A DNA stretch of 64,000 nucleotides. Source: Pseudomonadota bacterium. Its GTDB lineage: Bacteria; Pseudomonadota; Alphaproteobacteria; GCA-2731375. Position 1 is the stretch's first letter. Every line of letters begins with the position of its first letter. Shown piece after piece: positions 21,861 through 48,259 of the stretch. The translations under genes and the position numbers were made by a program. Location of the stretch: contig JAQBYC010000001.1 of NCBI GenBank assembly GCA_027623205.1, positions 121 through 64,120 on the forward strand, written 5' to 3'. The notes under the pieces were generated by a model. That model saw nothing but the letters and a program-made list of their open reading frames with translations. It did not search any database and had not been told where the DNA came from.

Positions 21861-21874
21861 GTCCCGACCTGATC

Positions 21875-30625: not shown

Positions 30626-33313
30626 ATGCCGGAATTTCATCAGCTGCCTCTGGCGGATCTTTTTCAGGAGTTGGGCGGTTCCGAGCGGGGTCTGACCGAG
30701 TTGGAGGCCCGGCGCCGGCTACAGGAACACGGGCGCAACGAATTGCGCGTGCAGGAGGGCGCGACGGAATTCGTCAAATTTCTACGCCAGTTCAAGAACT
30801 TCTTCGCGCTGCTTCTGATCGTTGGCGGCCTGCTCGCGGTGCTTGCCGAACAACTCGATCCGGCGCAGGGAAATCTCTACATCGCCATCGCGCTCTTTGC
30901 CGTGGTCCTGTTGAACGCGGTTTTTACCTATTTCCAGGAACGTCAGAGCGAACGGATCATGGAAAGCTTCAAGCAGATGCTGCCAGCCATGGTCACGGTT
31001 CTGCGTGACGGCGCGGCCCGAAGACTGGAGGCGCAATACCTGGTGCCGGGGGATGTCATCATTCTGCACGAAGGGGACCGGGTGCCGGCCGACGGCCGCC
31101 TTATAGAGAGCAGCGAGTTGAAGGTTGACCAGTCCAGTCTGACGGGCGAAAGCGAGCCGCAACCGCGCGATCCCAACCTCAGCCACGAGGCCATTCTGGA
31201 AAGCGCCAATATGGTGTTCTCCGGAACCCTCGTACACAACGGCGAAGGCAAGGTTCTGGTCTGCAATACAGGCATGTCGACGCAGATCGGAAATATCGTT
31301 GCCTTGACCAAGGCCACGGCAGAGACCGAAACGCCGATCCACCGGGAGCTTGCATATTTCATCAAGGTGATCAGCGCGATCGCGATTTTCCTCGGCGTCG
31401 CGTTCTTTCTTGTCAGCGTCGGGATCGGCAAGGGCGCCATCGGCAGCCTGATCTTCGCGATCGGCATAATTGTTGCGAATGTGCCCGAAGGCCTTTTGCC
31501 GACGGTGACGCTTGCGCTCACCATGGCGAGCAAGCGGATGGCGCGCAAGAACGCCCTGATCAAGAACCTGGAGAGCGTCGAGACGCTGGGCAGCACAACG
31601 GTCATCTGTACCGACAAGACCGGCACCCTGACGCAGAACCGACTGGGCGTGAACACGCTTATACTGGGCGGACAGGAGTATGCGGTCGTCGATCACGGGG
31701 CCATCGACCACCCCGGGCTGGAGCCCGTCTTGCAGGCCATGGCGCTGTGCAACAACGCCTATCTCGCCGACGGCGGTTTTTCGGGTGACGCAACCGACGG
31801 CGCGCTGTTGTTGTGCGTCAATCAATTCGCCGATCTCGAAGCGATCCGCCGCGCCCGAAAAATTGCCGAGCAGCCATTCAATTCCACGGCGAAGCGAATG
31901 ATTACCGTCACCGAGCCACCGGGCGGTGGACCGGCGCGCGCGCATCTTAAGGGCGCCCCGGAGGTCGTGCTCGAGATGTGTGATCGGATCATGATCAATG
32001 GCGAGACGGTACCGTTGAGCAGCGCCCGCCGCGATCAGGTCATCGATGACTATGGCAAGCTGGCGGGCCGGGGCGAACGTGGCCTTGCCTTTGCATTCCG
32101 GCCGGTGCAGGGCGCCGGCATTCCCGAGGCAGGCTACATTTTCATCGGCCTCGCCGGCATGATCGATCCGCCACGGCCCGAAGTTCCCGACGCGCTGGCC
32201 AGATGCCGCGGCGCGGGCATCAAGGTGGTCATGCTAACCGGCGATTATGGCCTCACCGCGCAAACCATTGCCCGCCAGATCGGGTTGCTTTCAGGCCAGG
32301 GCACGATCGTTCACGGCAACGAGCTGGCTGTCATGGGGGACGCCGAGTTGGCGGCAATCCTCAAGGCCGGGGACGAGCTGATCTTCGCGCGCATCGCGCC
32401 GACACAAAAGCTGCGTGTGGTGCAGGCGTTTCAGGCGCTGGGCGACATCGTTACCGTCACGGGGGACGGCGTCAACGACGCGCCGGCGCTGAAGAACGCG
32501 GACATGGGCGTCGCCATGGGGCTTATGGGCACCGATGTCGCCAAGGAGGCGAGCGACATGGTGCTGATGGACGATAATTTCGCGACCATCGTCAGCGCCG
32601 TCGAGGAGGGGCGCACGATTTTCGACAATACCAAGAAGTTCATCGCGTATATTCTGACGAGCAATATTCCCCAAATCCTGCCGTTCATCGCTTATGTCCT
32701 CTTGGATATTCCATTGCCGCTTACGGTGGTCTTGATCCTTAGCATTGATCTCGGCACCGACATCGTGCCGGCGCTTGGGCTCGGCGCGGAACTGCCTGAA
32801 ACGGATGTGATGAAGAAAGCGCCGCGCCGGCGCGACGAACGTCTGCTGTCACGAAATTTGCTGCTGATGAGCTATGGCGTAATCGGTATGATTCAGGCAG
32901 CTGCCGGTTTTTTCAGCTATTTCGTCATACTCCATGGGGGCGGCTGGCAATGGGGTCAGGAGCTGTCATCCACGGATCCGCTTTACCGGGCCGCCATCAC
33001 GGGCTTCTTCGCCTCGATCATCATTTGCCAGATCGCCGATGTCATCATCTGCAGGACGCGGCGTCAGAGCCTCCTGACGGTCGGTTTTTTGACCAACCGG
33101 CTGGTTCTGCTCGGCATCGGAACCGAGCTATTGCTCCTGGCGCTTATTGCCTATGTGCCTGCGTTCAATGTCTTCTTCGGAACCGCGCCGCTTGACGCCT
33201 GGCAACTTGCCTTGAGCATTCCATTCGCGCTTCTCATTCTGCTCGGCGACGAACTGCGCCGCGCATTTGTGCGCAAAGAGAATGCCTTTGTCCTTAAATG
33301 GCTGACCTGGTGA
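30626..33313 (+). CDS. Cation-transporting P-type ATPase (P2/P3-type)
   Basis: ATG at 30626 after AAGAGGACC; motifs LTGES, PEGL, DKTGTLT and GDGVNDAPAL; about 10 TM segments. Confidence 0.85.
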   Translation: MPEFHQLPLADLFQELGGSERGLTELEARRRLQEHGRNELRVQEGATEFVKFLRQFKNFFALLLIVGGLLAVLAEQLDPAQGNLYIAIALFAVVLLNAVFTYFQERQSERIMESFKQMLPAMVTVLRDGAARRLEAQYLVPGDVIILHEGDRVPADGRLIESSELKVDQSSLTGESEPQPRDPNLSHEAILESANMVFSGTLVHNGEGKVLVCNTGMSTQIGNIVALTKATAETETPIHRELAYFIKVISAIAIFLGVAFFLVSVGIGKGAIGSLIFAIGIIVANVPEGLLPTVTLALTMASKRMARKNALIKNLESVETLGSTTVICTDKTGTLTQNRLGVNTLILGGQEYAVVDHGAIDHPGLEPVLQAMALCNNAYLADGGFSGDATDGALLLCVNQFADLEAIRRARKIAEQPFNSTAKRMITVTEPPGGGPARAHLKGAPEVVLEMCDRIMINGETVPLSSARRDQVIDDYGKLAGRGERGLAFAFRPVQGAGIPEAGYIFIGLAGMIDPPRPEVPDALARCRGAGIKVVMLTGDYGLTAQTIARQIGLLSGQGTIVHGNELAVMGDAELAAILKAGDELIFARIAPTQKLRVVQAFQALGDIVTVTGDGVNDAPALKNADMGVAMGLMGTDVAKEASDMVLMDDNFATIVSAVEEGRTIFDNTKKFIAYILTSNIPQILPFIAYVLLDIPLPLTVVLILSIDLGTDIVPALGLGAELPETDVMKKAPRRRDERLLSRNLLLMSYGVIGMIQAAAGFFSYFVILHGGGWQWGQELSSTDPLYRAAITGFFASIIICQIADVIICRTRRQSLLTVGFLTNRLVLLGIGTELLLLALIAYVPAFNVFFGTAPLDAWQLALSIPFALLILLGDELRRAFVRKENAFVLKWLTW

Positions 33314-33367
33314 GGTGCGCCAACCAGGGCATGTTCAAGGGCCCCCGAAGCCGCTGGGACATTGATC

Positions 33368-34261
33368 CTATTTGGCCAGATGCTTACGCACCAGATCCAG
33401 AAACACGTCCAGACGGTCATGATGGGACCAGTGGCCGGCGCCTTCGATACTGGCCACCGAGGCGTTTTGGAATGGCGCCAGGCGGCCGTCTTCCTCGGGG
33501 TCCGAGGCCCAGCTTTCGGTGCCCCGGATCAGCAGGGTGGGGCAGGTGATGCGTGACCACAGGTGCCGCACCTCATCCTGGCTCAGACCGTAGGGGCGGA
33601 ATATCCGCACATAATTGTCAAACTTCCAGCTATAGCTGCCGTCCTCGTTCTGGTTGGCGCCATGCACGGTCAAATGCCGGGCCTGCGCCTCCGACAAATG
33701 GGGGTTTTCCTCCTGCATGCGGCGAAAGGCGTCTTCCAGGCTGGCGTAACGGCGGGGCGCGCGCCCGGACAGCTTGCGCAATTCCTGGGCCCAATCGTCC
33801 AGACGCACATCGATGCTTTTGCCGGCATTCTTCGCCAGCATGGCGGGCGAGGCGCCCAAGCCCTCGATCGCCACCAGGCTCTTGACGCTCTCGGGATACA
33901 GGCCGGCATATTGCAGGCTGATCATGCCGCCCAGGGAATGGCTGAGGATGGTCACCGGCGCCATGTTCTTCTGGTCGACCAACTGGGCGATGTCATAGAC
34001 ATATTCGGGCATGGTATAGCTGCCGCCCATGCTCCATTGGCTGTCGCCGTGGCCGCGCAGATCAGGGGCGATGATGTGATATTCGTCGCGAAAGGCTTCC
34101 GCCACCCAGTCCCAGTTGCGGCAATGGTCCCTGCCGCCATGCACCAACAGCATGGACGGGGCGCCCTCGTTGCCCCAATCCACGTAATGCAGGCGCAGGC
34201 GCTGCGAGAAGTAAACGTGGCTGGCGGGGCCGGAAGTGATTTTTGGCACGCTCTGCTCCAT
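33368..34261 (-). CDS. Alpha/beta-fold hydrolase
   Basis: HGG oxyanion motif and SHSLGG nucleophile elbow over 297 aa. Confidence 0.7.
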   Translation of the reverse strand: MEQSVPKITSGPASHVYFSQRLRLHYVDWGNEGAPSMLLVHGGRDHCRNWDWVAEAFRDEYHIIAPDLRGHGDSQWSMGGSYTMPEYVYDIAQLVDQKNMAPVTILSHSLGGMISLQYAGLYPESVKSLVAIEGLGASPAMLAKNAGKSIDVRLDDWAQELRKLSGRAPRRYASLEDAFRRMQEENPHLSEAQARHLTVHGANQNEDGSYSWKFDNYVRIFRPYGLSQDEVRHLWSRITCPTLLIRGTESWASDPEEDGRLAPFQNASVASIEGAGHWSHHDRLDVFLDLVRKHLAK

Positions 34262-34265
34262 TCCG

Positions 34266-35288
34266 TCAGGCAGCTATTTTCATATACCGGGCAATCAGGG
34301 TTTCGGCAATCTGCACGGCGTTCAGGGCCGCGCCCTTGCGCAAATTGTCGGACACCACCCAGATGTTCAGGCCGTTCTCCACCGTCGGATCGGTCCGGAT
34401 GCGCGAAATGAAGGTGGCGTATTCACCAACACATTCCACGGGCGTGACATAGCCGCCGTCCTCGCGCTTATCCACCACCATGCAACCTGGCGCTTCGCGC
34501 AGAATGTCACGCGCTTCGTCATCACTGATAGGCCGCTCGAACTCTATATTGATGGCTTCGGCATGACCCACAAAGGTCGGCACCCGCACACAGGTCGCGG
34601 ACAGCTTGATCCTTGGATCCAGGATCTTCTTGGTTTCGGCGGTCATCTTCCATTCTTCCCTGGTCTCGCCGCTGTCCATGAAGACGTCGATATGCGGGAT
34701 CACGTTAAACGCGATTTGCTTGGAAAAATGCCGCGGACTGGGCTGATCGTTGACGTAAATGCCCTTGGTCTGAATGAATAATTCATCCATGGACTCCCGC
34801 CCCGCGCCGGAAACCGATTGATAGGTCGCGACGACCACGCGCTTGACGACGGCATGATCATGCAAAGGCTTCAATGCCACCACCAACTGGGCCGTGGAAC
34901 AGTTGGGATTGGCAACGATGTTGCGCTGGCCGAAGCCGGCCAGAGCGCCTGGGTTAACCTCCGGCACCACCAATGGGACGTCGGGATCCATGCGGAAGGC
35001 TGATGAATTGTCGATTACCACACAGCCCGCCTCGGCCGCGACCGGTGCCCATTGGCGCGAGACATCACCCCCCGCGGAGAACAAGGCAATATCGACCTGG
35101 GAGAAATCGAAAGTCTCCAGCGCCTTGACCTTAAGAAGTTTGTCGCCAAGGTATGCCTCTTTGCCTACCGATCGGGTCGAGGCCAATGCCACGACCTCGT
35201 CGGCGGGAAAGAGCCGCTCATGCAGAATATTCAACATCTCCCGGCCCACATTCCCGGTGGCGCCGACCACTGCGACCTTGACACCCAT
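34266..35288 (-). CDS. asd: Aspartate-semialdehyde dehydrogenase
   Basis: VAVVGATGNVG NAD(P) motif, active-site NPNCST block, 340 aa. Confidence 0.9.
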   Translation of the reverse strand: MGVKVAVVGATGNVGREMLNILHERLFPADEVVALASTRSVGKEAYLGDKLLKVKALETFDFSQVDIALFSAGGDVSRQWAPVAAEAGCVVIDNSSAFRMDPDVPLVVPEVNPGALAGFGQRNIVANPNCSTAQLVVALKPLHDHAVVKRVVVATYQSVSGAGRESMDELFIQTKGIYVNDQPSPRHFSKQIAFNVIPHIDVFMDSGETREEWKMTAETKKILDPRIKLSATCVRVPTFVGHAEAINIEFERPISDDEARDILREAPGCMVVDKREDGGYVTPVECVGEYATFISRIRTDPTVENGLNIWVVSDNLRKGAALNAVQIAETLIARYMKIAA

Positions 35289-35386
35289 ATCACTGGTTCC
35301 TTGTCTGATACGACCTGTTCAAAAAGACGCCCCTCAATACCGTTTAACCGTGGTCGGCTTCAAGCGCTTAATCCGGCAGCCCGACG

Positions 35387-35452
35387 GTGTTTGGGACATT
35401 GTCAGGTCAAGTGGTCCGACTTCAATTGTGTCTTCAGTGTCGCATGTCGGGA
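35387..35452 (+). repeat. Second short repeat family, copy 1 (44 nt identical plus about 22 nt similar to the copy at 43155-43215)
   Basis: AAGTGGTCCGACTTCAATTGTGTCTTCAGTGTCGCATGTCGGGA is identical at 35409-35452 and 43172-43215; upstream GGGACATT extension is similar. Confidence 0.8.
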
Positions 35453-35588
35453 GGCAAACAATCCTGCGCTGACTTCGCATAGACCGATCGGACGACGAGA
35501 GCGGAAGCAGCGGCGTTCCAAGTCGCCAGGCTCTGGGCAACGCTTCCTGAATGGGCGTCTATGCGGTCCTTTGTGGCCACTTTCCTAT

Positions 35589-35693
35589 TAGAGCAATTTT
35601 CAATTAACTGGAGTCGCTCTCGCGACCTAAGTAATTGGTTCAATTTCTCTATTCTTAACGAGTCTGAGCACGTTTTAAGGAAACATGCTCTAA
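35589..35693 (+). repeat. Dispersed MITE/REP-like element, copy E (full length, forward)
   Basis: TAGAGCAATTTTCAATTAACTGGAGTCGCTCTCGCGACCTAAGTAATTGGTTCAATTTCTCTATTC...GCACGTTTTAAGGAAACATGCTCTAA. Confidence 0.85.
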
Positions 35694-35784
35694 CGCGACA
35701 ATGCCGACGTAACGCCCAAGCGCGTGGGCTTTAGCGAACGATACGTTGCTGAAAATATGGTGGGCAATCGTGAACCCTGTATCA

Positions 35785-36477
35785 TCAACCCTCGACATCG
35801 AGGGCATAGCCGGCGCCGCGGACGGTGCGGATCGGGTCCACGCCGTCGGCCAGATAGAGAGCTTGTCGCAGGCGGCGGATATGAACGTCCACGGAGCGGT
35901 CCTCGATGTGCACATCTCTGCCCCAGGCCAAATCGAGCAGTTGGGCGCGGGAGAGGACACGGCCGGGACGTTCCATCAAGCTTTGGAGCAAGCGGTATTC
36001 CGTCGGTCCGAGGTGAATTGGCCGGCCCTTCCGCGTTACCTTGTGCTGTGCCAGATCCATAATGATACCGGCATGTTCCAGCGTCTCCCCGGCCAGCGCC
36101 GGGCGGCTGCGGCGCAAGAGAGCCCAGACCCGCGCCACCATCTCCGCCGGCGAATACGGCTTGACCACGTAGTCATCCGCGCCCGTCTCCAGCCCGCGGA
36201 CCCGGTCGCCCTCTTCCCCCCGGGCGGTTAGCATAATAATGGGCAGGCGCTTGGTCTCTGGCCTGGCCCTGAGGCGCCGGCAAACCTCAATCCCGGAGAC
36301 CTTGGGCAGCATCCAATCAAGAATGATCAGGTCGGGTTCGACCTCCGCGACCAGCAACAAGGCGCGCTCGCCATTGTCGGCCGCCACGATCCGGAAACCC
36401 GCCTTTTCCAGATTGTAGGAAAGCACCTCGACTTGCGCCGGTTCGTCCTCGACGATGTAGATCAGCGGCTGCGTCAA
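35785..36477 (-). CDS. phoB: Phosphate regulon response regulator PhoB
   Basis: REC domain with D...D...K pattern plus an OmpR/PhoB winged-helix C-terminal domain; 230 aa; sits in the pho-pst cluster. Confidence 0.9.
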   Translation of the reverse strand: MTQPLIYIVEDEPAQVEVLSYNLEKAGFRIVAADNGERALLLVAEVEPDLIILDWMLPKVSGIEVCRRLRARPETKRLPIIMLTARGEEGDRVRGLETGADDYVVKPYSPAEMVARVWALLRRSRPALAGETLEHAGIIMDLAQHKVTRKGRPIHLGPTEYRLLQSLMERPGRVLSRAQLLDLAWGRDVHIEDRSVDVHIRRLRQALYLADGVDPIRTVRGAGYALDVEG

Positions 36478-37232
36478 GTTTCCGGCCTTTCCCCATCGGC
36501 CTTGGCGCCCGCCGGCGCCCCGTCCGTATCGACGGCGGTGAAGCTGGTGTTATCGCCCTTGGGGCGCAAATCTCCCGGCAAATCGCCTAGGATCATGAAA
36601 TGCACTTGCTCGGCAATGCCGGTCACGTGATCGCCAATCCGCTCCACGTTCTTGGCCACGAACAACAGGTGTGTCGCGACCGTGATATTGCGGGGGTCTT
36701 CCATCATGTAGGTCAACAGTTCGCGAAACAGGCTTGTGTAAACCTGATCGACTTCCTGGTCGCGAATGCGAACGTCATCCGCCTTGGCAGCGTCGCGCTG
36801 GATATAGGCATCCAGCACATTTTTGATCATCGCCTGGACCAACACCGCCATGCGCGCGATCGACTGCGCCGTGCCTCCCAATGGCGGACCCTTGGCCAGG
36901 ACGAAGGTCCGCTTGGCGACGTTCTTCGCATAATCACCGATCCGTTCCAGGCTGGAAGAGATTTTTAGCGCCGCGACGATGATGCGCAGATCGTCAGCCA
37001 TCGGTTGACGCAAGGCCAGCAATCGGATCGTGAAGGTGTGCAAATCGTTCTCGATGGCATCGATACGCTGGTCCCGTTCGACGATACGTCCGGCCAGTTC
37101 CACATCGCGGCGCAGCAACGCCTCAATGGCATCGGCCAATTGTGCTTCCGCCAGGCCGCCCATTTCGGCCACCATGTTGTCCAGCGTGGCAAGTTCCTCG
37201 TCGAAGGATTTGACTATATGCTCCGTTTCCAT
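36474..37232 (-). CDS. phoU: Phosphate signalling complex protein PhoU
   Basis: Two PhoU repeats; start METEHIVKSFDEEL at 37232; ATGA overlap with phoB. Confidence 0.85.
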   Translation of the reverse strand: METEHIVKSFDEELATLDNMVAEMGGLAEAQLADAIEALLRRDVELAGRIVERDQRIDAIENDLHTFTIRLLALRQPMADDLRIIVAALKISSSLERIGDYAKNVAKRTFVLAKGPPLGGTAQSIARMAVLVQAMIKNVLDAYIQRDAAKADDVRIRDQEVDQVYTSLFRELLTYMMEDPRNITVATHLLFVAKNVERIGDHVTGIAEQVHFMILGDLPGDLRPKGDNTSFTAVDTDGAPAGAKADGERPET

Positions 37233-37248
37233 TTCATCCGCCCCGTGT

Positions 37249-38046
37249 TCAGCCGATACGACCGGTAATATAAGCCTGTGTCCGCCCATCTACCGGGTTG
37301 GTAAAAATTTGTCCTGTCTCGCCTTGTTCAAGCACCTCGCCCAGATGAAAGAACGCCGTTCTTTGCGAGACGCGTGCCGCCTGCTGCATCGAGTGGGTAA
37401 CGATCACAATGGTGTAGCGCGCGCGAAGCTCGTCGATCAATTCCTCAACCTTGGCGGTGGCGATCGGGTCGAGGGCCGAGCAGGGTTCGTCCATCAGAAT
37501 AACCTCGGGCTCAACGGCGATGGCGCGGGCGATGCAGAGGCGCTGTTGCTGACCACCGGAAAGGCCGGTGCCGGGCTCGTCAAGGCGCTCGCGCACCTCG
37601 TCGATCAGACCGGCCCGCCGCAGGCTGGCTTCGACGATGTCGTCCAGTTCGGCTCGGCTGTCGGCCAGTCCATGGATGCGTGGGCCGTAGGCCACGTTCT
37701 CGTAAATCGATTTCGGGAACGGGTTCGGTTTCTGGAAGACCATGCCGACGCGGGCGCGGAGCTCAACCACATCAATGGCCGGACTGTAGATGTCCTCGCC
37801 ATCAAGGCTGATTTGTCCCGTCACGCGGCAACCATCAATGACATCGTTCATCCGGTTGAGACAACGCAGGAAGGTGCTTTTGCCGCAACCCGACGGCCCG
37901 ATCAGGGCGGTGACTGTATTGGCCTCGATCTGGACATTGACCGAGAACAGCGCCTGCTTATTTCCGTAGCTGACATCAACCCCCGCCGCGCGCATCTTGA
38001 TGTTCGCGGCGGGGGCCTCTTGATTACTCATGGCAATGGCGTTCAT
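37249..38046 (-). CDS. pstB: Phosphate ABC transporter ATP-binding protein PstB
   Basis: Walker [18 protein letters not shown] signature, Walker B ILMDEP. Confidence 0.9.
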
Positions 38047-38062
38047 TCTCGGTCGGTCCTAT

Positions 38063-39361
38063 CTACCAGCGCTGCTCGAACCGCCGCCTTAGCAGCACGG
38101 CAGCAAGATTCATAACAATCAAAAACGCCAACAGGACCACGATCGCCGCCGCGGTGCGCTCGGCAAAGGCCCGCTCGGGCGCGTCCGCCCAAAGAAAAAT
38201 CTGTACCGGTAACACCGTCGCGGGGTCGGTCGGAGACGTGGGCACGTCGACGATAAAGGCGACCATGCCGATCATCAACAACGGCGCCGTTTCGCCAAGG
38301 GCGCGGGCCATACCGATGATGGTACCGGTCAAAATGCCTGGCATGGCCAATGGCAAAACATGGTGCGCCACCACCTGCATGGGGCTGGCGCCAATGCCAA
38401 AGGCGGCATCTCGGATTGATGGTGGCACGGCCTGCAAGGCGGCACGGCCGGCGATGATCACCGTTGGCAACGTCATCAACGCCAATACCATGCCGCCTAC
38501 CAGCGGTGCCGATCGGGGCAGTCCCAGAAAACCAAGCAGGACCGCCAAGCCAAGCAGACCAAAAACGATCGAGGGCACCGCCGCCAGATTGTTGATGTTG
38601 ACTTCGATGAGGTCGGTCCAGCGGTTCCTGGGTGCGAATTCTTCCAGATAAACGGCCGTCATGACACCCAGGGGAAAGGCGATAACGAGACAGATCGAAA
38701 GCGTCAGAAGCGATCCGACGGCGGCGCCCCGGAGACCTGCCAACTCGGGCTCGCGGCTATCTGCCGCCATGAACAGGCGCCAGTTGAACCGCTGCGCCAA
38801 CTGCTCCCGGTTTTCCAGCTTGTCCAGCCACGCGGCCTGTTGGGCGTCGATCCTGTTGCCATGCTGCAAGCCGCCAGCGACCAGTCCCTTGATGTACATG
38901 TCAGCATCATCCGAGGCCGGCAGCCAGACTGTCCGCCGCCCGCCGATCAGGCCCTGATCCGCCAACACCATTTCCCGCAGCTCGAAAGCCGCTCCGGCGC
39001 TCATGATTTTGCGCAGGGCGCGCCGGCCCCGCCGGTCTTTGATCTCGGGAAACAGTTTCCCGAGGCTGATCTTGACGAGCGCATCATAGTTGGCGCGTGC
39101 CAGCGTCGTTGGATTTCGGGTTCCCTCTGGGTCAATCAGCGCTTCGTCAAAATGAATTTCTAGCGCAATCTCCGTTTGGCCAAGCGCCGTATAGGCCTTG
39201 GAGAAAATTGTGGCGAACAGCCCCACAAGAAAGATCAGCGATACCGCCACTGCCACCATGCCGTATGAACGGAAACGCTGCTCCGCCCGCCGCCGCCGCA
39301 GCCGGTCCTTGGATTGGCGCCGTGCCGCTATTACGGCTGGATACTTGACGTTTTCAGTCAT
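38063..39361 (-). CDS. pstA: Phosphate ABC transporter permease PstA
   Basis: Long-form permease with the ABC TM EAA-like loop (ARALGETAPLL); 8-bp overlap with pstC. Confidence 0.85.
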   Translation of the reverse strand: MTENVKYPAVIAARRQSKDRLRRRRAEQRFRSYGMVAVAVSLIFLVGLFATIFSKAYTALGQTEIALEIHFDEALIDPEGTRNPTTLARANYDALVKISLGKLFPEIKDRRGRRALRKIMSAGAAFELREMVLADQGLIGGRRTVWLPASDDADMYIKGLVAGGLQHGNRIDAQQAAWLDKLENREQLAQRFNWRLFMAADSREPELAGLRGAAVGSLLTLSICLVIAFPLGVMTAVYLEEFAPRNRWTDLIEVNINNLAAVPSIVFGLLGLAVLLGFLGLPRSAPLVGGMVLALMTLPTVIIAGRAALQAVPPSIRDAAFGIGASPMQVVAHHVLPLAMPGILTGTIIGMARALGETAPLLMIGMVAFIVDVPTSPTDPATVLPVQIFLWADAPERAFAERTAAAIVVLLAFLIVMNLAAVLLRRRFEQRW

Positions 39362-40733
39362 ACTTCTCTCGATATTTGCGCACAGTCACCAGCGCCACCA
39401 GATTCAACCCCAGCGTCACCACGAATAGCACGAGGCCAAGCGCGAAGGCGGCCAGCGTCTTGGCGCTGTCAAATTCCTGATCGCCAACCAGAAGGGTAGC
39501 GATCTGCACCGTCACGGTGGTCACGGCCTCGAACGGATTGGCCGTCAGGTTCGCCGCCAGGCCCGCTGCCATGACAACGATCATGGTTTCGCCGATGGCC
39601 CGGCTCAGCGCCAGCAGGATGCTGCTGATAATACCGGGCAAGGCCGCGGGCAGCACCACCTGGCGGATCGTCTCCGATCGTGTGGCCCCAAGTCCGTAAG
39701 ACGCCTCGCGCAGGCTTTGCGGCACAGCCGTGATGACATCGTCGGAAAGCGACGAGATGAAGGGAATAATCATGATCCCCATGACGACGCCGGCGGCTAG
39801 TGCGCTTTCGCTGGAAACGTCCAGGCCAAAGAACCCGCCGGCGTCACGGATCAAAGGTGCGACCGTCAGCGCCGCGAAGAACCCGTACACAACGGTCGGA
39901 ATACCGGCCAGAATTTCCAGCACCGGTTTGATCACGTCGCGGACCGGTTTCGCCGCGTATTCCGCCAGATAAATCGCCGAAAAGAGACCGGCCGGCACCG
40001 CTACTGCCATTGCGATCACACTAATTAGCAGCGTGCCGGCAAAGATCGGAACCGCGCCAAAGCGACCGGAAGAGCCCACCTGATCGGTCCTTAGCGCGGT
40101 CTGCGGGCTCCAATCAAGGCCAAACAAAAAGTCCCAGACCGGCACTTTCTCGAAGAACCGTATTGTTTCAAACAGCAGCGAGAGCACAATGCCAATGGTG
40201 GTGAAGACCGCCAGCGTCGAACTGACGATCAGGGCAACGCGGATACTGCGCTCCACCGCGCGTCGGGCGGCGAAGGTCGGCGCCACCACACGCCAGCCGC
40301 GCCATAGCCCGGCGCCGGCAACCATGAGACTGATAACGGCAAGAGACACAACGGCGATTTGGCGCAGACCGAGATAACGTTGCGCCGCCTCACTCATGGC
40401 GGCATCACTTGTGCCGAGGTCGATGCCCCGCGCCAAATTGTGAATGTTATCATAGATCAGTGCCAGGCGTTCCGCTGGCAGCGCCTTGAGGTCTGAGGGC
40501 AAGGCGGAGAGCACTAGCCAGCGGATCGCCGGCGGTTCCAAGGCCAGCCAGATGGCAATGAGCGCCAGTGCCGGCAGGCCGCACCAGAGCAGCACATAGC
40601 CGCCGTAGTGGTTCGGCAGCGAGTGCAACGCCTTGGCGTGGCCGCCGGCGAGAGCCAGGGCCCGGCCGCGTCCCATCCGAAATCCGATCGCGGCCAGCGC
40701 CAGGATCGCGATGATGATAAGTAGATTGGACAT
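39354..40733 (-). CDS. pstC: Phosphate ABC transporter permease PstC
   Basis: Polytopic permease with SRAIGETMIVV EAA-like motif; position between pstS and pstA. Confidence 0.85.
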   Translation of the reverse strand: MSNLLIIIAILALAAIGFRMGRGRALALAGGHAKALHSLPNHYGGYVLLWCGLPALALIAIWLALEPPAIRWLVLSALPSDLKALPAERLALIYDNIHNLARGIDLGTSDAAMSEAAQRYLGLRQIAVVSLAVISLMVAGAGLWRGWRVVAPTFAARRAVERSIRVALIVSSTLAVFTTIGIVLSLLFETIRFFEKVPVWDFLFGLDWSPQTALRTDQVGSSGRFGAVPIFAGTLLISVIAMAVAVPAGLFSAIYLAEYAAKPVRDVIKPVLEILAGIPTVVYGFFAALTVAPLIRDAGGFFGLDVSSESALAAGVVMGIMIIPFISSLSDDVITAVPQSLREASYGLGATRSETIRQVVLPAALPGIISSILLALSRAIGETMIVVMAAGLAANLTANPFEAVTTVTVQIATLLVGDQEFDSAKTLAAFALGLVLFVVTLGLNLVALVTVRKYREKYD

Positions 40734-40758
40734 CGGCCGGGCCTAATCTCGGTTTGGC

Positions 40759-41787
40759 TCACATGGACAGGTTGGCAAGAGCCGCCGCCTGGGCCCGGAC
40801 CTTGGCGCGCTCCGCATCCGGCAATGGGATCAGTCCCTTATCCGCCAGGTAGCCATCGGGCCCCCAGGCCTTGTCGGCGGTGAACTCGGCCACGAAGTCG
40901 CGCAGACCAGGGACGGTCCCCACATGGGCTTTTTTGACGTAGAAGTAGAGAGAGCGGGAGACCGGATATTGGCCCGCCGCGATGGCCTCGAATTCCGGCA
41001 TGCTGCCGTTGACCCGGCTGCCTTGCAGCTTGTCGGCGTTCTGATCCAGAAAGCTAAAGCCGAAGATGCCGAAGGCGGCCGGGTTGGTCTCCAGCTTCTG
41101 CACGATCAAATTATCGTTCTCGCCCGCTTCAATGAAGGCACCGTCTTCGCGCAAGGTATGGGCAACCGCCTTGAACCGCTTTTTGTCCGCCTTGCGCATG
41201 GCAGCCAGCATTGGAAAGGTCTTGGCTCCGCCTTCCAAGGCCAGTTCGACGAAGGCATCACGCGTGCCGGAGGTTGGCGGAGGGCCCAGAACCTCGATCT
41301 TGCTCATGGGCAGCGAAACATCGATGTCGCGCCACGTCATGTATGGGTTCGCCACCAGCTTGCCGTCCACCGGCACGTCTTTGGCCAGAGCCAGGAAGAG
41401 CTGCTTGAGGCTTATTGACATCAAGCCGGACTTTCGGGAGTTGGCCAGCACGATGCCGTCAAAGCCGATCTTGACCTCGACGATATTGACGACGCCGTTT
41501 TTGGCGCAGCGCTGAACCTCGGACGTCTTGATCCTTCGGGATGCGTTGGTGATGTCGGGATAGTCAACACCAAGGCCGGCGCAGAACAGTTTCAAGCCGC
41601 CGCCCGAACCGGTGCTCTCCACCACGGGGGTTTTAAAACTGCTGGTCTTGCCGAAGTGTTCGGCGACCGCGGTGGCGAAAGGGAAGACGGTGCTGGAACC
41701 GACGACCCGGATCTGGTCCCGCGCGGCGGCGGCGTTGGTGATCATCACCGCCGCCAAGGCTGCCAGTGCCAATGATTGCTTGAGCAT
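40759..41787 (-). CDS. pstS: Phosphate ABC transporter substrate-binding protein PstS
   Basis: Signal peptide; PBP-fold phosphate-binding family (VVGSSTVFPFATAVAE...TSGTRDAF). Confidence 0.85.
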   Translation of the reverse strand: MLKQSLALAALAAVMITNAAAARDQIRVVGSSTVFPFATAVAEHFGKTSSFKTPVVESTGSGGGLKLFCAGLGVDYPDITNASRRIKTSEVQRCAKNGVVNIVEVKIGFDGIVLANSRKSGLMSISLKQLFLALAKDVPVDGKLVANPYMTWRDIDVSLPMSKIEVLGPPPTSGTRDAFVELALEGGAKTFPMLAAMRKADKKRFKAVAHTLREDGAFIEAGENDNLIVQKLETNPAAFGIFGFSFLDQNADKLQGSRVNGSMPEFEAIAAGQYPVSRSLYFYVKKAHVGTVPGLRDFVAEFTADKAWGPDGYLADKGLIPLPDAERAKVRAQAAALANLSM

Positions 41788-41891
41788 AAAAAGGTTCTCC
41801 TGTGCTCGCTATAGGTTACGGCGGTGAATTCCACCATGACCGGATAGCTAGCCCTCGAACGTTGCTCTTTTATGACAACTGTATTGCAGTT

Positions 41892-42965
41892 TTATGACAG
41901 TCGCGGAGGCGCGACGGTTCGTTCCTCGAGCGGCAAAAAGACAGTGAACCTGTTGCCGCGGCCCGCGCTGCTTTCAATGCTCAAACGGCCGCGATGGTGA
42001 TTGACGATATGCTTGACGATGGCCAGCCCCAGGCCCGTACCGCCCATGTCGCGCGAGCGCCCCTTGTCAATGCGGTAGAAACGCTCGGTCAGCCTCGGCA
42101 AGTGTTCGGGCGCGATCACCTCGCCCTGATTTGTCACCGCGATGGCCATGCCCGGGCCGCCAACATCGGGCATTCGGGATAGCGTTTTCGCCTCGAGCGC
42201 AACCGGCGCATTCCCGGATCCGTACTTAACAGCATTGGCCAGGAGATTGTGGAAGACCTCGAACAACTCGTCCCTGTCACCCGGTACGGGGGGGAGGTCC
42301 AGACCAAGATCCGTAGTGATATCCATGCCTCTCTCCGCCGCCCGCGCGGCGACGGATTTCATGACCTCGGCTAAAAGTTCTGAAATATCGACAGCGCCAG
42401 TCGGTGGAATATGTTCGCCCGCCTCTACCCGGGAGAGCGAAAGGAGATCATCCACCAATCGGGCCATGCGCTTCGCCTCGCCGTCCATGATGTCAAGGAA
42501 GCGCTCCCGTGCTTGCGTATCGTCGCGCGCGGGTCCCTTGAGCGTCTCGATGAACCCTACCAGGGACGAAAGCGGCGAGCGCAACTCGTGGCTCACGTTG
42601 GCGACAAAGTTGGCCCGCATCCGCTCCACTTCGCGCGCCGCCGTCACGTCATGCAAAAGACAGAGTGCCCGCGCGCCGTCGCTGACGCCTGAGGGCAGAG
42701 AGGCCACGTGCATCTCGAACGTCTGCTGGACCGGCACCGCCTGCTCAATGACTGCTCCCGCCACCGGCGCCCCGGCAAGGACCGCGCCTACCGCATCGAG
42801 CACCTCCGGATGGCGCAACGACATCGCCAGATCACTGCCCGTGACAAGCCCACCGAACAAGTCGCGCGCCAAGCTGTTCGCGGCCATGACCCGCCGCCTG
42901 CCATCAATCAGGACGGCGGGGTCTCTCAAGGCTTCCAGCAAGGCGCTTGTGTTCTCATCCGTCAT
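41892..42965 (-). CDS. phoR: Phosphate regulon sensor histidine kinase PhoR (PAS-HisKA-HATPase; no N-terminal TM region)
   Basis: H-box NVSHELRSPL, N/G1/G2 ATPase boxes (HNLLANAVKY, GTGLGLAIVK); begins directly with a PAS-like domain. Confidence 0.8.
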   Translation of the reverse strand: MTDENTSALLEALRDPAVLIDGRRRVMAANSLARDLFGGLVTGSDLAMSLRHPEVLDAVGAVLAGAPVAGAVIEQAVPVQQTFEMHVASLPSGVSDGARALCLLHDVTAAREVERMRANFVANVSHELRSPLSSLVGFIETLKGPARDDTQARERFLDIMDGEAKRMARLVDDLLSLSRVEAGEHIPPTGAVDISELLAEVMKSVAARAAERGMDITTDLGLDLPPVPGDRDELFEVFHNLLANAVKYGSGNAPVALEAKTLSRMPDVGGPGMAIAVTNQGEVIAPEHLPRLTERFYRIDKGRSRDMGGTGLGLAIVKHIVNHHRGRLSIESSAGRGNRFTVFLPLEERTVAPPRLS

Positions 42966-43056
42966 CGCAGGGCCTGCTCAAATTTTTTGCCGCCGTCAGG
43001 GTGCCCGGCAGGGCGGCAGCGGTCAATATTACAATAGTCGTTCGGGGCGGCCTGTT

Positions 43057-43113
43057 GCGACTTAGGTAATTGGTTCAAGTTCTCTATTCTGCAGATTCTG
43101 AGTACATTCCATG
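43057..43113 (+). repeat. Dispersed MITE/REP-like element, copy F (right-half fragment)
   Basis: GCGACTTAGGTAATTGGTTCAAGTTCTCTATTCTGCAGATTCTGAGTACATTCC, 92 bp upstream of the phoR start. Confidence 0.75.
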
Positions 43114-43154
43114 GACGCCGAAACAGGACTAATACGCCTTGAAATCACAGATGT

Positions 43155-43215
43155 CGGGACATTTTTACGTTAAGTGGTCCGACTTCAATTGTGTCTTCAG
43201 TGTCGCATGTCGGGA
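43155..43215 (+). repeat. Second short repeat family, copy 2
   Basis: Contains the identical 44-mer AAGTGGTCCGACTTCAATTGTGTCTTCAGTGTCGCATGTCGGGA; the 9-mer ATGTCGGGA also occurs immediately upstream (43151-43159). Confidence 0.8.
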
Positions 43216-43323
43216 TGTGACCGCTCTGCGAGATGGGTAACAGTTTTTGGTCTACGATAACTTTTACCTCCAGCGCCATTATCTCGGCAGAACAACGTTC
43301 AAGCGACATCTTTTGGGGGCTTC

Positions 43324-44286
43324 CTATTGACCGGGCACTGCTGAATTATAGCTGGTGTGATGGCCTGTGATTTGGGGGGCGGCAGCGGCCCTTTCGCGGT
43401 CCGCCGCGACTTCCGCCAGAACCCAGTCGCGAAAGACCCGGACTTTAGGGTGTTGCAGGGCGCGGGCTGGATGGACCAGATAGTAGGCGAATTCCGCCGG
43501 CAGCTCCAACTCGAAGGGCCGCACCAGGCGCCCCTCGGCCAGGTGATTGCCCAACAAGGCGCTGCGGGCCAGGGCAACGCCCTGGCCGTCCACGGCCGCG
43601 TTGATGACCAGGGCGGACAAATTGTAGCCCGGTCCCCGATCGGGATCGACATCTTCGACGCCGGCCGCCAGCAACCAACGCCGCCAGCTTTCCCGCATAT
43701 CGTCATGCAGCAGGGTGTGATAGCGCAGATCCTCGGGGCGCAGCAGCGGGTGGGCGCCGTGCAACAGGGCCGGGCTGCAGACCGGAAAAACTTCCTCGGT
43801 CATCAAGGGCAGCACCTCCAGGCCCGGCCAATGGCCGTTGCCGTAACGAATTGCCAGATCCACATCGTCGCGGGCAAAATCCACGACTTCGTCGCTGGCC
43901 GCCACCCGCACATCGATGTCGGAATGCAGGGCGCGAAAGCGGCCCAGGCGCGGTACCAGCCAGGCAGACGCGAACGAGGCCAGGGTTGTAACCGTCAAAA
44001 TGCCGCTATCCTGGCGTTTGGTCAGGCGGTCCGTGGCCGCCTCCATCAGATCCAGCCCCTCGCGCACCGCCGCTGAATAGTTCTGGCCATTCTCCGTCAG
44101 CACGATGGCCCGGCCCCGGCGGCGAAACAGCGCCAGGCCCAGCCATTCTTCCAGGGCCTTGACCTGGTGGCTTATGGCGGCCTGGGTGACGTGCAGTTCC
44201 TGGCCGGCGCGGGTGAAGCTCAATTGCCGGGCCGCCGCTTCGAACGCACGCAGGGCATTGAGGGGAGGAAGCTTTCGATCCGCCAT
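43324..44286 (-). CDS. LysR-family transcriptional regulator (GcvA-like)
   Basis: N-terminal HTH LNALRAFEAAARQLSFTRAGQELHVTQAAISHQVKALE; LysR substrate-binding domain; 320 aa. Confidence 0.85.
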   Translation of the reverse strand: MADRKLPPLNALRAFEAAARQLSFTRAGQELHVTQAAISHQVKALEEWLGLALFRRRGRAIVLTENGQNYSAAVREGLDLMEAATDRLTKRQDSGILTVTTLASFASAWLVPRLGRFRALHSDIDVRVAASDEVVDFARDDVDLAIRYGNGHWPGLEVLPLMTEEVFPVCSPALLHGAHPLLRPEDLRYHTLLHDDMRESWRRWLLAAGVEDVDPDRGPGYNLSALVINAAVDGQGVALARSALLGNHLAEGRLVRPFELELPAEFAYYLVHPARALQHPKVRVFRDWVLAEVAADRERAAAAPQITGHHTSYNSAVPGQ

Positions 44287-44425
44287 TCAGAATCCAGTCT
44301 TAATTTCTCATTAATTCATTATTTATTCTAATGATATATATGAGAAACGATCGTTTGTCGCAAAAATTTTTTATCCCTATATACTTGAACATAGGGCGAT
44401 CAGAAACCAGGAAAGGAGAGTTGCC

Positions 44426-44641
44426 ATGTTGCGGACTTCCACATTTGCGATTAGAGAAATTGATCTTGGCCAGGCGTTGATGCAGGCCGTGATTAAGGTT
44501 GCGGCGACGCTCTATCATTGGCAGGCTCGTGCCGAGCAACGCTATCGCCTGGCGGAATTTGATCAGCGCGCCTTGCAGGACATCGGCGTTTCGCGGAATC
44601 AGGCCCTGACAGAAGCCCGCAAGCCATTCTGGTGGAATTAA
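44426..44641 (+). CDS. DUF1127 domain small protein
   Basis: 71 aa ending in the DUF1127-like motif LAEFDQRALQDIGVSRNQALTEARKPFW; divergent from the LysR gene across an AT-rich 139-bp promoter region; GGAAAGGAG precedes the ATG. Confidence 0.65.
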   Translation: MLRTSTFAIREIDLGQALMQAVIKVAATLYHWQARAEQRYRLAEFDQRALQDIGVSRNQALTEARKPFWWN

Positions 44642-44998
44642 GCGCTTCCCCATAGCCGCCGGATCTCCCGGCCTATAACGGACTTGCATAACCAAGCTGC
44701 GTCGATCGCGGGTTCGCGTCGGCGCGGCTTGCTGTTGCCGCCGTCCACGGCCGCGCGACCGCCCGGCAGGCTTTGATCAAATGGCAAGGCCGGGCGACTG
44801 ATCAGCGGAAATCCAAAAGTCCAGTCTTCAGGTTCCACAAGCACTCCAAAATATTTTGGTGCGCTTGCCACATAAGTCCGGACCAATGGGTGGTCGGGAG
44901 CGGGTGGGTAAGTCAACCTCGAAAATGCTCTAGAATAGTGTGCGGGTTGCCTGGTCCCTGCCGGCAGGGACCGGGGCATTATGCGATTGCGACAACCC

Positions 44999-45907
44999 TC
45001 AAACGCTGTCTTTCTGGTCGAACAGTTTCAGGATCGCAATGCCGTCCAGGTCGCCGTGGCCCTTGCTGTTCAGGATACGGTACAGGCTGGCGGTTTGGCT
45101 GGACATGGGCGTGGGAACGCCCAGCGCCTTGGCCAGGTCGTGGAGCATGTCCAGATCTTTCAGAACCTGCCGGGCGAAGCCGGCGGGGGCGAAGTCGCGG
45201 GCCAGCATGCGCGGATACATGGATTGCAGCATATTGCTGCCCGCATGACCGGCGGCCAGGGCCTGGGGGATCTTGGCGGCATCGATGCCGCCCGCCTCCG
45301 CCAGGGCCAAGGCCTCGGCCAGAATAGCGTAATTGTTCAGCACCAGAATTTGATTGATCATCTTGGTGACCTGGCCGGCGCCGACCGGGCCCATGTGGGT
45401 GAACCGCGCCGCCAGATCGGCCATTACCGGTGCGGCGCGGGCGATATCAACCTCGGTGCCGCCGGCCATGATGGCCAGCCCACCGGCGCCGGCCGCCGGC
45501 GGGCCGCCCGACACCGGGGCATCGATCCAGCCCATGCCGGTCTGCCGTGATAACGCCGCCGCCATCTCCCTGGTCGCCTGGACCACGGTGGTGGAATGAT
45601 CCACCAGTATTTTGTCACCGCTGCCGGTCTCCGCCAGGCTGGCGCCTTCCACCACGCCCTTGGGGCCGAACACGGCCTGATGCACCGCGTCCGTGGAGGT
45701 TACGCACAGCAACACCATATCGGCGCGACTGGTCAGGTCGGCGGCCGAACTGGCCGGGACAACGCCATGGGCGGCGGCGGCGGTGATTTTCTCCGCCACC
45801 AGATCATGGCCGATTACCGTATAGCCAAGGCTGCAGAGGCGCCGGGTGAAGGGATGCCCCATGAGCCCGAGGCCGATGAAACCGATGACGGGTTTATTTT
45901 TGTTCAT
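44999..45907 (-). CDS. NAD(P)-dependent 3-hydroxyisobutyrate dehydrogenase family oxidoreductase
   Basis: IGFIGLGLMGHP Rossmann motif and HIBADH/6-PGDH-like fold; 302 aa. Confidence 0.8.
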   Translation of the reverse strand: MNKNKPVIGFIGLGLMGHPFTRRLCSLGYTVIGHDLVAEKITAAAAHGVVPASSAADLTSRADMVLLCVTSTDAVHQAVFGPKGVVEGASLAETGSGDKILVDHSTTVVQATREMAAALSRQTGMGWIDAPVSGGPPAAGAGGLAIMAGGTEVDIARAAPVMADLAARFTHMGPVGAGQVTKMINQILVLNNYAILAEALALAEAGGIDAAKIPQALAAGHAGSNMLQSMYPRMLARDFAPAGFARQVLKDLDMLHDLAKALGVPTPMSSQTASLYRILNSKGHGDLDGIAILKLFDQKDSV

Positions 45908-46536
45908 GGCAACAAGTCCAATGCGGTCAATTGCCGTCGCAACGCCGCGGCGTCCGTGAACTGAATACCGTGAAAGCCCAAGGCGCTGGCGCTCTCCACA
46001 TTGGCGGCAAGATCATCGACAAAGACCGCGCGTTCCGGCGCCAGCTTATAACGGTCACAGGCCACGTGAAAGATTTTCGGGTCGGGCTTCGCCACCCCTT
46101 CCAGGCCGGAGATTACCAGTCCATCGAACCAGTCCAGAAAGGCAAAGCGTTCCGTGGCGTGGTGCCAGGTTTCCGAGGACCAGTTGGAAATTACGTACAG
46201 GGACATGCCCGCGGCCTTCAGCTCCGAGACGACCGCCAGGCTATCTTCCAGACTACCGTTCAGAGTTTCATCCCAGCGATGCCAATACGCCGCGATCAAA
46301 TCGGCATGCTGGGGCAGACGGGCGGATAGTTCGGCGACGCCGCGCTGAAACGATTTGTCCGCGTCCACGCCGCGCAGCCAATTGTATAGATCGATCTCGT
46401 CCAGAAAGCGGGCAATCGCGTCGTCGCTGTCAAACAGCTTGCGGTACAGATGATAGGGGCTCCAATCGATCAACACGCCGCCCAGGTCGAAAACGACGGT
46501 GTCAATGGCCCCAACATGTGCGCGCGCCACCATCAC
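45904..46536 (-). CDS. HAD-superfamily hydrolase
   Basis: Motif I DTVVFDLGGVL and motif III/IV (K...DD) pattern; 210 aa; 4-bp overlaps on both sides. Confidence 0.7.
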   Translation of the reverse strand: MMVARAHVGAIDTVVFDLGGVLIDWSPYHLYRKLFDSDDAIARFLDEIDLYNWLRGVDADKSFQRGVAELSARLPQHADLIAAYWHRWDETLNGSLEDSLAVVSELKAAGMSLYVISNWSSETWHHATERFAFLDWFDGLVISGLEGVAKPDPKIFHVACDRYKLAPERAVFVDDLAANVESASALGFHGIQFTDAAALRRQLTALDLLP

Positions 46537-47081
46537 TTCGCGGCTTTGACCAGCCGGCCCCTGGCGCTGCGCACCTTCTCCCCATCGACGTTGCGGGTGA
46601 ACTCCAACGTCATGCCCAGGCCCGAGAGCTCCCGGCGGTAGCTTTGGGTCTCATGCCGGCCGTCGGCATAGATTTGCAGACTGACGATATGCAAGGTGCG
46701 GTCCTTGACATAGGCCCAGGCGAAGGGGGCCGTCTGCTCCAGGGGATCGCGGTTTCCGGTGGCGCGCCAGACGCCGGGGCGGACGGGTGTAAATCCCATC
46801 TTGGTGGTCTTCAGTTTTTCCTTGGGATTGTTGGGATCGCCCTTTTGCCGTTGCACCGTATTCCAGACAATCGAGAAACCGCCGCCGGCGTCGCTACGAA
46901 CGGTGACGTCGATATCCCGGCTGGTCAGTTGGAAATTGACGCTGATATCGCTTTCTGAAATGGCACTGCCCCGCCACACGCCCTCAAAGGCGGCGATCTC
47001 CAGATCCGCGGCATTGACCGCATTCCCGGGCCAGAGCAGCAATAACAAGGATAGGCGCAAAAGGGCGCGGGGCATTAGCAA
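46533..47081 (-). CDS. Secreted hypothetical protein
   Basis: Signal peptide MLMPRALLRLSLLLLLWPGNAVNA; no recognisable domain; translationally coupled within the trmL-HAD-HIBADH operon. Confidence 0.5.
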   Translation of the reverse strand: MLMPRALLRLSLLLLLWPGNAVNAADLEIAAFEGVWRGSAISESDISVNFQLTSRDIDVTVRSDAGGGFSIVWNTVQRQKGDPNNPKEKLKTTKMGFTPVRPGVWRATGNRDPLEQTAPFAWAYVKDRTLHIVSLQIYADGRHETQSYRRELSGLGMTLEFTRNVDGEKVRSARGRLVKAAK

Positions 47082-47554
47082 TTCTCCGATTTATTGACCG
47101 CGTGTGCTGTAACAAAGCCGTCTGTCTGACGCAAGGCCTCGCCCAAAATCATCGCGCCGGCGATGGCGATATTCAACGACCGCGCGCTCGCCTGCATGGG
47201 AATGCGCAGGCGCGCATCGGCCCGGTCGTGGACCGCCGCAGGTACACCCGCCTGTTCCTGCCCCAGCAGGATGACGTCATTGGACCGGAAGGCGAATGTG
47301 GCGTAGGGCGTGGCGCTTTTCGTGGTTGCCAGGATCAACCGGCCGGTCGCGGTGGGCAGGAAGTCCGCCCAGGAATGGTGCCGTTGCAGCGCCGCGGCCG
47401 CTGCATAGTCCATGGCGGCGCGGCGCAGTTGTTTATCCGTGAAGGTGAACCCGCAGGGCTCGATAATATCCAGCGGCACGCCCAGGCAGGCGCACAGGCG
47501 GATCAAGGTGCCGGTGTTTTGTGGAATATCGGGTTGGTAGAGAGCCAGGCGCAT
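47075..47554 (-). CDS. trmL: tRNA (cytidine/uridine-2'-O)-methyltransferase TrmL (SpoU family)
   Basis: Start MRLALYQPDIPQNTGTLIRLCA matches the TrmL N-terminus; SPOUT fold; the ORF's upstream extension was rejected. Confidence 0.8.
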   Translation of the reverse strand: MRLALYQPDIPQNTGTLIRLCACLGVPLDIIEPCGFTFTDKQLRRAAMDYAAAAALQRHHSWADFLPTATGRLILATTKSATPYATFAFRSNDVILLGQEQAGVPAAVHDRADARLRIPMQASARSLNIAIAGAMILGEALRQTDGFVTAHAVNKSENC

Positions 47555-47722
47555 GCGGTACCATGGCTGATTCGCCGCCATCTGGCCAGTCCCCAGAGCG
47601 GGAATGCACGTCCGGAAACCGGTGCGGCGGTGCAGGCGGTACATGGCTGGACAAATGCGCGGCGGCATGACAAATAAGAACCTGTCAATCTCCCGATGAT
47701 TTCAGAATAAGGTGATCGAGCA

Positions 47723-48250
47723 ATGACGGATAGCACGGGCGGGGACGGACACGACCCCAGCCGCCGGGACTTCCTGTATGTGGCCGCGGGCGGCCTTGGC
47801 GCCGTTGGCGCGGCCGGCTTTGTCTGGCCGCTGGTCGTTCAGATGAACCCTTCACGGGACGTTCTGGCCCTGTCTTCGATCGAGGTTGATCTATCCGGTA
47901 TAGAGCTGGGGCAGTCCATCACCGTCAGCTGGCGCGGCAAGCCGGTCTTCATCCGCCACCGTACCGAGGCCGAAATTGAGGTAGCCAGGGCCGTTCCCAT
48001 GGACGATCTGCCCGATCCCGAGAGCGACGAGGCGCGGGCGCAAAAGCCGGAATGGCTGATCATGGTCGGCGTCTGCACCCATCTGGGCTGTGTGCCCCTG
48101 GGTCAGCAGGGCGAATACAACGGCTGGTTCTGCCCCTGTCACGGTTCCCACTATGATACCTCGGGGCGTATCCGCAAGGGACCCGCGCCGCTTAATCTTG
48201 CGGTGCCGAAATATGTCTACCTGGACGACAACAACGTCAAGATCGGCTAG
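47723..48250 (+). CDS. petA: Ubiquinol-cytochrome c reductase Rieske iron-sulfur subunit
   Basis: Tat-like N-terminus RRDFL; Rieske boxes CTHLGC and CPCHGS. Confidence 0.9.
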
Positions 48251-48259
48251 GGGGCGGAT

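Follow-up and report, generated by a model that had tools for sequence, protein, structure and literature searches.

Why does the phoR-pstSCAB-phoU-phoB (pho) operon of an alphaproteobacterium stand between two copies of one short repeat? The question was raised by a 64-kb stretch of contig JAQBYC010000001.1, which was analyzed as a whole and is called the window below. A search of the window placed the 44-mer AAGTGGTCCGACTTCAATTGTGTCTTCAGTGTCGCATGTCGGGA exactly at 35409–35452 and 43172–43215, both on the forward strand. The first-pass annotation of this DNA had reported the same two copies, and it had offered three candidate identities: a small RNA (sRNA), a second family of miniature inverted-repeat transposable elements (MITEs), or recombination scars framing the pho locus. 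The third of these was upheld in substance, by an empty site in six relatives and by a repeat copy lying exactly at an insertion junction, and the other two were not. We consider it somewhat probable (roughly 0.55) that the two copies are direct repeats bracketing a relocated chromosomal segment, and that the recombination behind the move of the pho operon either left them behind or made use of them.

The repeat pair was far beyond chance. No match of the 44-mer was expected from 100 shuffles, and no third match was found in the window with up to three mismatches allowed. The similar upstream extension noticed in the first pass was present, and the repeat finder carried the similarity leftwards to 60 nt, of which 56 (93%) were identical. 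These 60-nt, non-coding copies are named R1 and R2 (Table 1). Their layout was GGGACATT, an 8-nt patch in which all four mismatches clustered, and then the identical 44-mer with a sharp right boundary. Outside the 60 nt, local alignments of the left flanks, and of the unique segments U1 and U2 on the right, were no better than those of shuffles, so the flanks were not diverged homologues. No additional copies of the repeat, U1 or U2 existed within the window. R1 lay 136 nt from MITE copy E, as had been annotated. The distance from R2 to MITE fragment F had been given as 58 bp, and we measured 66 nt from the recognizable end of the fragment's core. Gene identities assigned by NCBIfam agreed with the earlier view that the two copies bracket the whole operon.

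The locus without its pho operon was found in relatives, all of them uncultured marine alphaproteobacteria. In six related genomes (L012; L092/L093; a JGI contig, available without its DNA; L094/L095; L096; L098–L101), a gcvA-like LysR gene was followed directly by asd and the hydrolase gene, with spacers of 59–172 nt. The closest of the six was L098 (Asd 94% and LysR 91% identical), and the window was collinear with it across 20292–35378 and 43417–51874. Three differences separated the two: the pho block, an additional P-type ATPase in the window, and methyltransferase and Sel1 genes that were found in L098 and were missing from the window. The LysR gene of the relatives ended in GGATTAAGCGCTTGA, which codes for G-L-S-A/S-stop. 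In the window, GGATTAAGCGCTTGA was found beside asd, at about 35360–35374.

Alignment to L098 placed junction J1, on the LysR side, at 43346|43345 and junction J2, on the asd side, at about 35396|35397. These corresponded to neighbouring positions in the L098 tail, CACCGGCCAGAA^CGCCTCTCAAAACACC, which indicated that the insertion was clean. No target-site duplication was present at the junctions. The comparison shows that a piece of 7,949 nt, containing the complete pho operon, was inserted within the last ~12 codons of the LysR gene and immediately upstream of asd. The outer end of R1 coincided with J2, and R2 lay 130 nt inside J1. The outermost GGGA of R1 may be derived from the target, as a 4-nt microhomology at J2.

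Table 1. Features of the pho insertion and its surroundings (window positions).
Feature	Position	Strand	Remarks
alpha/beta hydrolase	33368–34261	−	NCBIfam
asd (aspartate-semialdehyde dehydrogenase)	34266–35288	−	NCBIfam; directly after LysR in 6/6 relatives
LysR relic (last ~12 codons and stop)	35360–35396	−	Stranded beside asd; followed by the conserved asd upstream block
Whole insertion relative to relatives	35397–43345		7,949 nt: R1, U2, MITE E, phoB to phoR, MITE F, R2, U1
Repeat copy 1 (R1)	35393–35452	+	60 nt; exact 44-nt core 35409–35452; outer end at J2
U2	35453–35587		135-nt unique spacer, R1 to MITE E
MITE copy E	35588–35692	+	Downstream of phoB
pho operon (phoR-pstSCAB-phoU-phoB)	35785–42965	−	NCBIfam
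phoB	35785–36477	−	NCBIfam
phoU	36474–37232	−	NCBIfam
pstB	37249–38046	−	NCBIfam
pstA	38063–39361	−	NCBIfam
pstC	39354–40733	−	NCBIfam
pstS	40759–41787	−	NCBIfam
Pho-box-like tandem half-sites, CTGTCATAAAACTGCAATACAGTTGTCAT	41872–41900	−	Upstream of pstS; predicted (expected) PhoB site, outside the repeat
phoR	41892–42965	−	NCBIfam
phoR upstream segment	42996–43029		82% over 34 nt with relative L002
MITE copy F (degenerate)	core 43052–43089	+	Upstream of phoR
Repeat copy 2 (R2)	43156–43215	+	60 nt; exact core 43172–43215; inside the insertion, 130 nt from J1
U1	43216–43345		130 nt, R2 to J1; far end gives the new last six codons and stop of LysR (SAVPGQ*)
gcvA-like LysR-family regulator (GcvA family)	43324–44286	−	NCBIfam; homology to relatives stops at 43346, tail past it is inserted DNA
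Main MITE copies	5365–5469, 12303–12407, 18460–18560 (−), 28637–28741, 35588–35692, 43052–43089 (degenerate), 53527–53611 (−)		

The C-terminal ~20 residues of LysR (window 43324–43380) were hypervariable among close relatives, with Q/N/S-rich repeats of differing lengths, and in one clade the tail was the same DNA read in another frame (...TPLEATY). A tail that is hypervariable, and even frame-shifted among relatives, is probably dispensable, which suggests that it may tolerate insertions. On the asd side, the window shared with all relatives a conserved block, GGATTAAGCGCTTGAAG...CCACNGTTAAACGGTATTGA, which was found at about 35320–35381 on the minus strand and overlapped the ancestral LysR stop codon. 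It resembled an asd promoter (TTGAAG, about 18 nt, TATTGA) and was not called by the consensus promoter scan. This block was intact below the insertion junction.

Read from LysR to asd, the insertion comprised U1, R2, a spacer of ~28 nt, MITE F, the phoR upstream piece, the operon, a 92-nt spacer, MITE E, U2 and R1. The GC content was equal inside the insertion and in its flanks, and the pho operon proteins were about as diverged from those of relatives as the products of the flanking genes. This indicated that the operon was native and relocated, not foreign. The segment at 42996–43029, which L002 shares, is also native DNA that was carried along with the operon. Remnants of old neighbours (the Sel1-like and YjiS regions) were not found in U1, U2 or the inner flanks.

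The insertion itself can be read from the alignments, and from its structure we infer the mechanism. The most likely route would be a Campbell- or translocatable-unit-like single crossover within the 44-nt identical block. First, a 185-nt sequence, composed of U1 and one repeat copy, would already have been in the LysR tail; second, the pho segment, as a circle or as a tandem copy, would have carried the second repeat copy; third, recombination between the two copies would have taken place inside the 44 perfectly identical nucleotides. After a single crossover, the inserted segment must have a repeat on either side. A crossover in the 44-nt block also leaves a block of perfect identity with a sharp end on one side and the parental differences, here the 8-nt patch, on the other. 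The repeat encodes nothing, and the crossover would therefore need host homologous recombination or some other enzyme. In favour of this route, the inserted segment was bracketed by two direct copies of a repeat that was absent from the same site in relatives, R1 ended at J2, and the co-oriented repeats enclosed the operon. In addition, R1 paired in register with the far end of U1 at 11 of 14 positions and R2 did not, which fits R1 and U1 as the two ends of one earlier 185-nt insertion. The reconstructed 185-nt element had a fold z-score of −1.3.

Several points weigh against relocation through the repeats. The terminal pairing of R1 and U1 was weak (p about 0.04); an equally good score was reached by 5% of genomic windows. 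Because R2 was 130 nt from J1, the insertion does not simply begin and end with the repeats. No relative had the repeat at the empty site, so that the first step, with U1 and a repeat in place, is unobserved, and the donor copy is hypothetical because no third copy was found in the window or the collections searched. No origin was detectable for U1 or U2. The insertion held no genes other than phoR, pstSCAB, phoU and phoB, and no recombinase or transposase was found in or next to the block. Finally, the source was a metagenome-assembled contig. A derivation of the repeat from the LysR tail, that is, a true target duplication, was also considered and was not significant (p = 0.07–0.19).

The move might also have taken a single step. 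The donor would then already have been arranged as repeat-pho-repeat, and U1-R2-pho-R1 would have been inserted whole, either by illegitimate, microhomology-mediated joining or by a transposase supplied in trans that recognized the weakly inverted ends of R1 and U1. Such an event would leave two clean junctions at adjacent target positions, as observed, and the 4-nt GGGA overlap at J2 and the in-register pairing of the insertion ends agree with it; non-autonomous transposons of composite structure, made up of miniature elements, are known (PMC4133298). However, the junctions had no target-site duplication, the pairing of the ends was not significant against the genomic background, and no transposase is known. 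It would also defer the question of how the repeat pair arose to a donor locus that is unseen. We therefore regard the one-step move as unlikely.

Alternatively, the two copies might be members of a small dispersed family, a second MITE-like or repetitive extragenic palindrome (REP)-like element, that landed independently. Their position around pho would then be coincidental, or reflect a preference for spacers shared with the main MITE. The genome was indeed rich in small mobile repeats, with seven main MITE copies in 64 kb and both repeats within 140 nt of one, and the count of the repeat covers only the 64-kb window of this genome. Moreover, a 9-mer, ATGTCGGGA, at 43151–43159 duplicated the last 9 nt of R2. 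The first-pass annotation had likened this direct repeat to a target-site duplication; the repeat was real, but R1 had no such flank and stood beside the LysR-tail relic instead. Against such a family, the 64 kb contained only two copies, and the repeat's own ends matched as an inverted repeat over no more than the 5 nt of GACAT/ATGTC.

Searches outside the window pointed in the same direction. A 20-mer from the first half of the repeat had no exact match in one genome per species from 185,579 species (596 Gb) or in JGI metagenomes, and a 21-mer from the second half had none in viral contigs. BLAST of the R2 region against plasmids and phages gave no matches. The 27 marine metagenome stretches that contain the main MITE (187 kb; see below) had nothing similar to the repeat. 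Among the relatives, the repeat and the MITE were absent from the pho loci, and no significant similarity to the repeat was detected in the LysR tails or the LysR-asd spacers of L012, L092, L094, L096 and L098. The repeat was thus absent from the public collections searched and from all examined loci of relatives. A dispersed family would also leave it to chance that R1 is located precisely at the insertion junction. We judge independent landings to be rather unlikely, and a second MITE family, as first proposed, was not borne out.

The main MITE had a length of ~107 nt, terminal inverted repeats TAGAGCA...TGCTCTA and a palindromic core, AATTGGTTCAATT; its seven copies amounted to about one per 9 kb of the window. 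Its 22-nt core was found in 27 marine metagenome stretches (L102–L128) with 82–94% identity. These contigs were otherwise unrelated in DNA, which indicated a widespread marine MITE family. The motif TTCAATTG, which had been described as common to the repeat and the main element, did occur in both. Its enrichment in the window came solely from the copies of the MITE and from R1 and R2. A composite transposon bounded by the main MITE was rejected: the outer ends of MITE E (35588) and MITE F (about 43127) fell short of the junctions (about 35396 and 43346) by roughly 190–220 nt. Elsewhere in the window, a tRNA-Ala (CGC) gene at 53420–53495 was followed within about 30 nt by a main MITE copy (53527–53611).

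The contig was also compared with an independent assembly (Logan, k=31) of the same sample run, SRR2027830. PhoU of the window was 100% identical to a protein of an NCBI metagenome-assembled genome from this sample. An assembler could have mis-threaded the contig through the 44-nt repeat, with the pho segment actually located elsewhere or forming a separate circle. The source is a metagenome-assembled genome, and a graph built with k=31 branches at the 44-mer. Because the pho segment joins only the repeat at both of its ends, the sole alternative threading is an empty site plus a 7.76-kb circle, and that circle would hold the only known pho operon of the genome. However, a repeat of 44–60 nt is shorter than ordinary reads and can be spanned, and the composition was uniform across the region. 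The independent assembly contained LysR together with U1 and ended exactly 30 nt into the 44-mer, as expected of a true repeat, so that the LysR-U1-repeat junction was reproduced independently. Another contig ended in MITE E, and the hydrolase contig of the Logan assembly ended inside asd, short of J2. An assembly artefact is on this evidence highly improbable.

A role for the repeat in expression was considered as well. It might be a functional cis element or an sRNA gene that was duplicated as needed upstream of phoR and asd, and each copy was indeed located 100–250 nt upstream of a gene start on the minus strand, that of asd (35288) or that of phoR (42965). Signals of an sRNA (promoter, terminator, conservation) had been put forward as a check in the first pass, and none was obtained for the repeat. 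Across the whole window, Rfam at the gathering score returned a tRNA only. At E-values up to 10, it returned nothing in the asd-phoB spacer and a meaningless 14-bit match over MITE F in the phoR spacer. The folds of both copies, on both strands, were no better than those of shuffles (z-scores from +0.5 to −1.65). Scans called no promoter-like or terminator-like sites in either spacer. A scan for Pho boxes, defined as tandem CTGTCAT-like half-sites 11 nt apart, found none in the repeat, and its sole good matches were those upstream of pstS (Table 1). The relatives had no such sequence upstream of asd or phoR, and the conserved block upstream of asd was intact and lay beyond the repeat. An sRNA or cis-element function is thus very improbable, and the repeat need not have any RNA or regulatory function.

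The pho operons of relatives had different neighbours in every case and were without flanking repeats; a search for such repeats around the operon in three relatives gave chance-level matches only. In L002 (PhoU 88% identical; 4263–12212 against window 35768–46536), the pho operon also adjoined the neighbourhood of the 302-aa, HAD and cytochrome bc1 genes. There it abutted a Sel1-like gene in the opposite orientation, without LysR-asd. The pho operon of L002 thus represents another rearrangement, distinct from that in the window and at almost the same position. That the pho block was simply inverted between L002 and the window was considered and rejected, because the repeats and both MITE copies were direct and the left flanks were entirely different. 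In L006, an IS66-family element was located immediately upstream of phoR, and a perfect 22-nt tandem duplication (GATGGCGAATCAGAACAGAACG twice, at 4257–4300) spanned the phoR start.

A bolder proposal is that an "operon cassette", still active and without an enzyme of its own, recombines at the 60-nt repeat. The pho operon, a core housekeeping unit that comprises all of the control and transport genes of the pho regulon, would excise as a 7.76-kb circle and re-insert at other copies of the repeat, by means of host recombination or of a recombinase whose gene lies elsewhere. If so, the different position and orientation of pho in L002 would reflect repeated moves. We consider this quite improbable.

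Other parts of the neighbourhood were also changeable. A gene for a P-type cation ATPase (30398–33313) was located between the hydrolase and FAD oxidoreductase genes; it was also found in L094, and it was not at that position in L098. The interval 44287–44998, compared with 7750–9660 of L098, was a variable slot between the gene for a 302-aa dehydrogenase-like protein and a YjiS-like gene, and it was nearly empty in the window. The slot held methyltransferase and Sel1 genes in L098; a P450/DyP/phosphoesterase cluster in L092; a transposase in L096; and methyltransferase, B12-binding and pterin-binding genes in L094, to which the JGI contig added MTHFR.

Among known systems, several resembled this insertion in part. 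In Campbell-type integration, donor and target share an identical stretch, and one crossover within it yields direct repeats of that stretch on both sides of the insert. The sharp ends of homology and the flanking differences would partition exactly as they do here. However, the stretch here was 44–60 nt, a length at which RecA-dependent recombination is close to its lower limit of efficiency, and the circular donor is hypothetical. In translocatable units of the insertion sequence IS26 and the IS2-like "megacircle", circles made of one repeat and the intervening genes insert beside a copy of the repeat that is already in place (Ocasio and Cotter, 2019, PMC6350997). The pho insertion shares with them a segment between two direct repeat copies. 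Their repeat is a full insertion sequence that encodes the circle-making transposase, whereas here it was 60 nt, non-coding and without inverted ends. The pho insertion works like a translocatable unit but is not a strict IS26-type unit.

Genomic islands and cis-mobilizable elements with attL/attR direct repeats can occupy the 3′ ends of genes (for integrative and conjugative elements, see the review PMC5812530). Like them, the pho insertion had entered a 3′ end, was associated with direct repeats of tens of nucleotides and supplied a replacement 3′ end for the gene. In contrast, it had no integrase, no repeat in the empty site of the relatives (attB) and an R2 that was 130 nt from J1, and its cargo was a native core operon rather than foreign DNA. 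An integrase-mediated island was rejected, as the repeats were not at both junctions, no integrase or recombinase gene was present and the relatives had no attB copy. TIMEs, composite non-autonomous transposons derived from miniature inverted-repeat elements (PMC4133298), are similar in that small non-coding repeats bracket and move chromosomal genes. They have clear terminal inverted repeats and target-site duplications, whereas the insertion ends here matched neither the main MITE copies nor a convincing inverted repeat. Integron attC sites, dif/Xer sites, Tn3-type ends and the template/variable repeats of diversity-generating retroelements were compared by eye, and none fitted.

The pho insertion is an ordinary kind of event in a well-documented instance, and it involves no new molecular system. 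For annotation, such a repeat should not be called an sRNA or a regulatory motif, and in metagenome-assembled genomes it flags a branch point of the assembly graph. The locus is a clear case from nature in which a core operon was relocated in full within its genome, with junctions mapped to the nucleotide, an empty site kept in six relatives and the stranded end of the interrupted gene still readable. It indicates that short non-coding repeats of 44–60 nt can mark or mediate the reshuffling of an essential operon in a genome crowded with miniature mobile elements.

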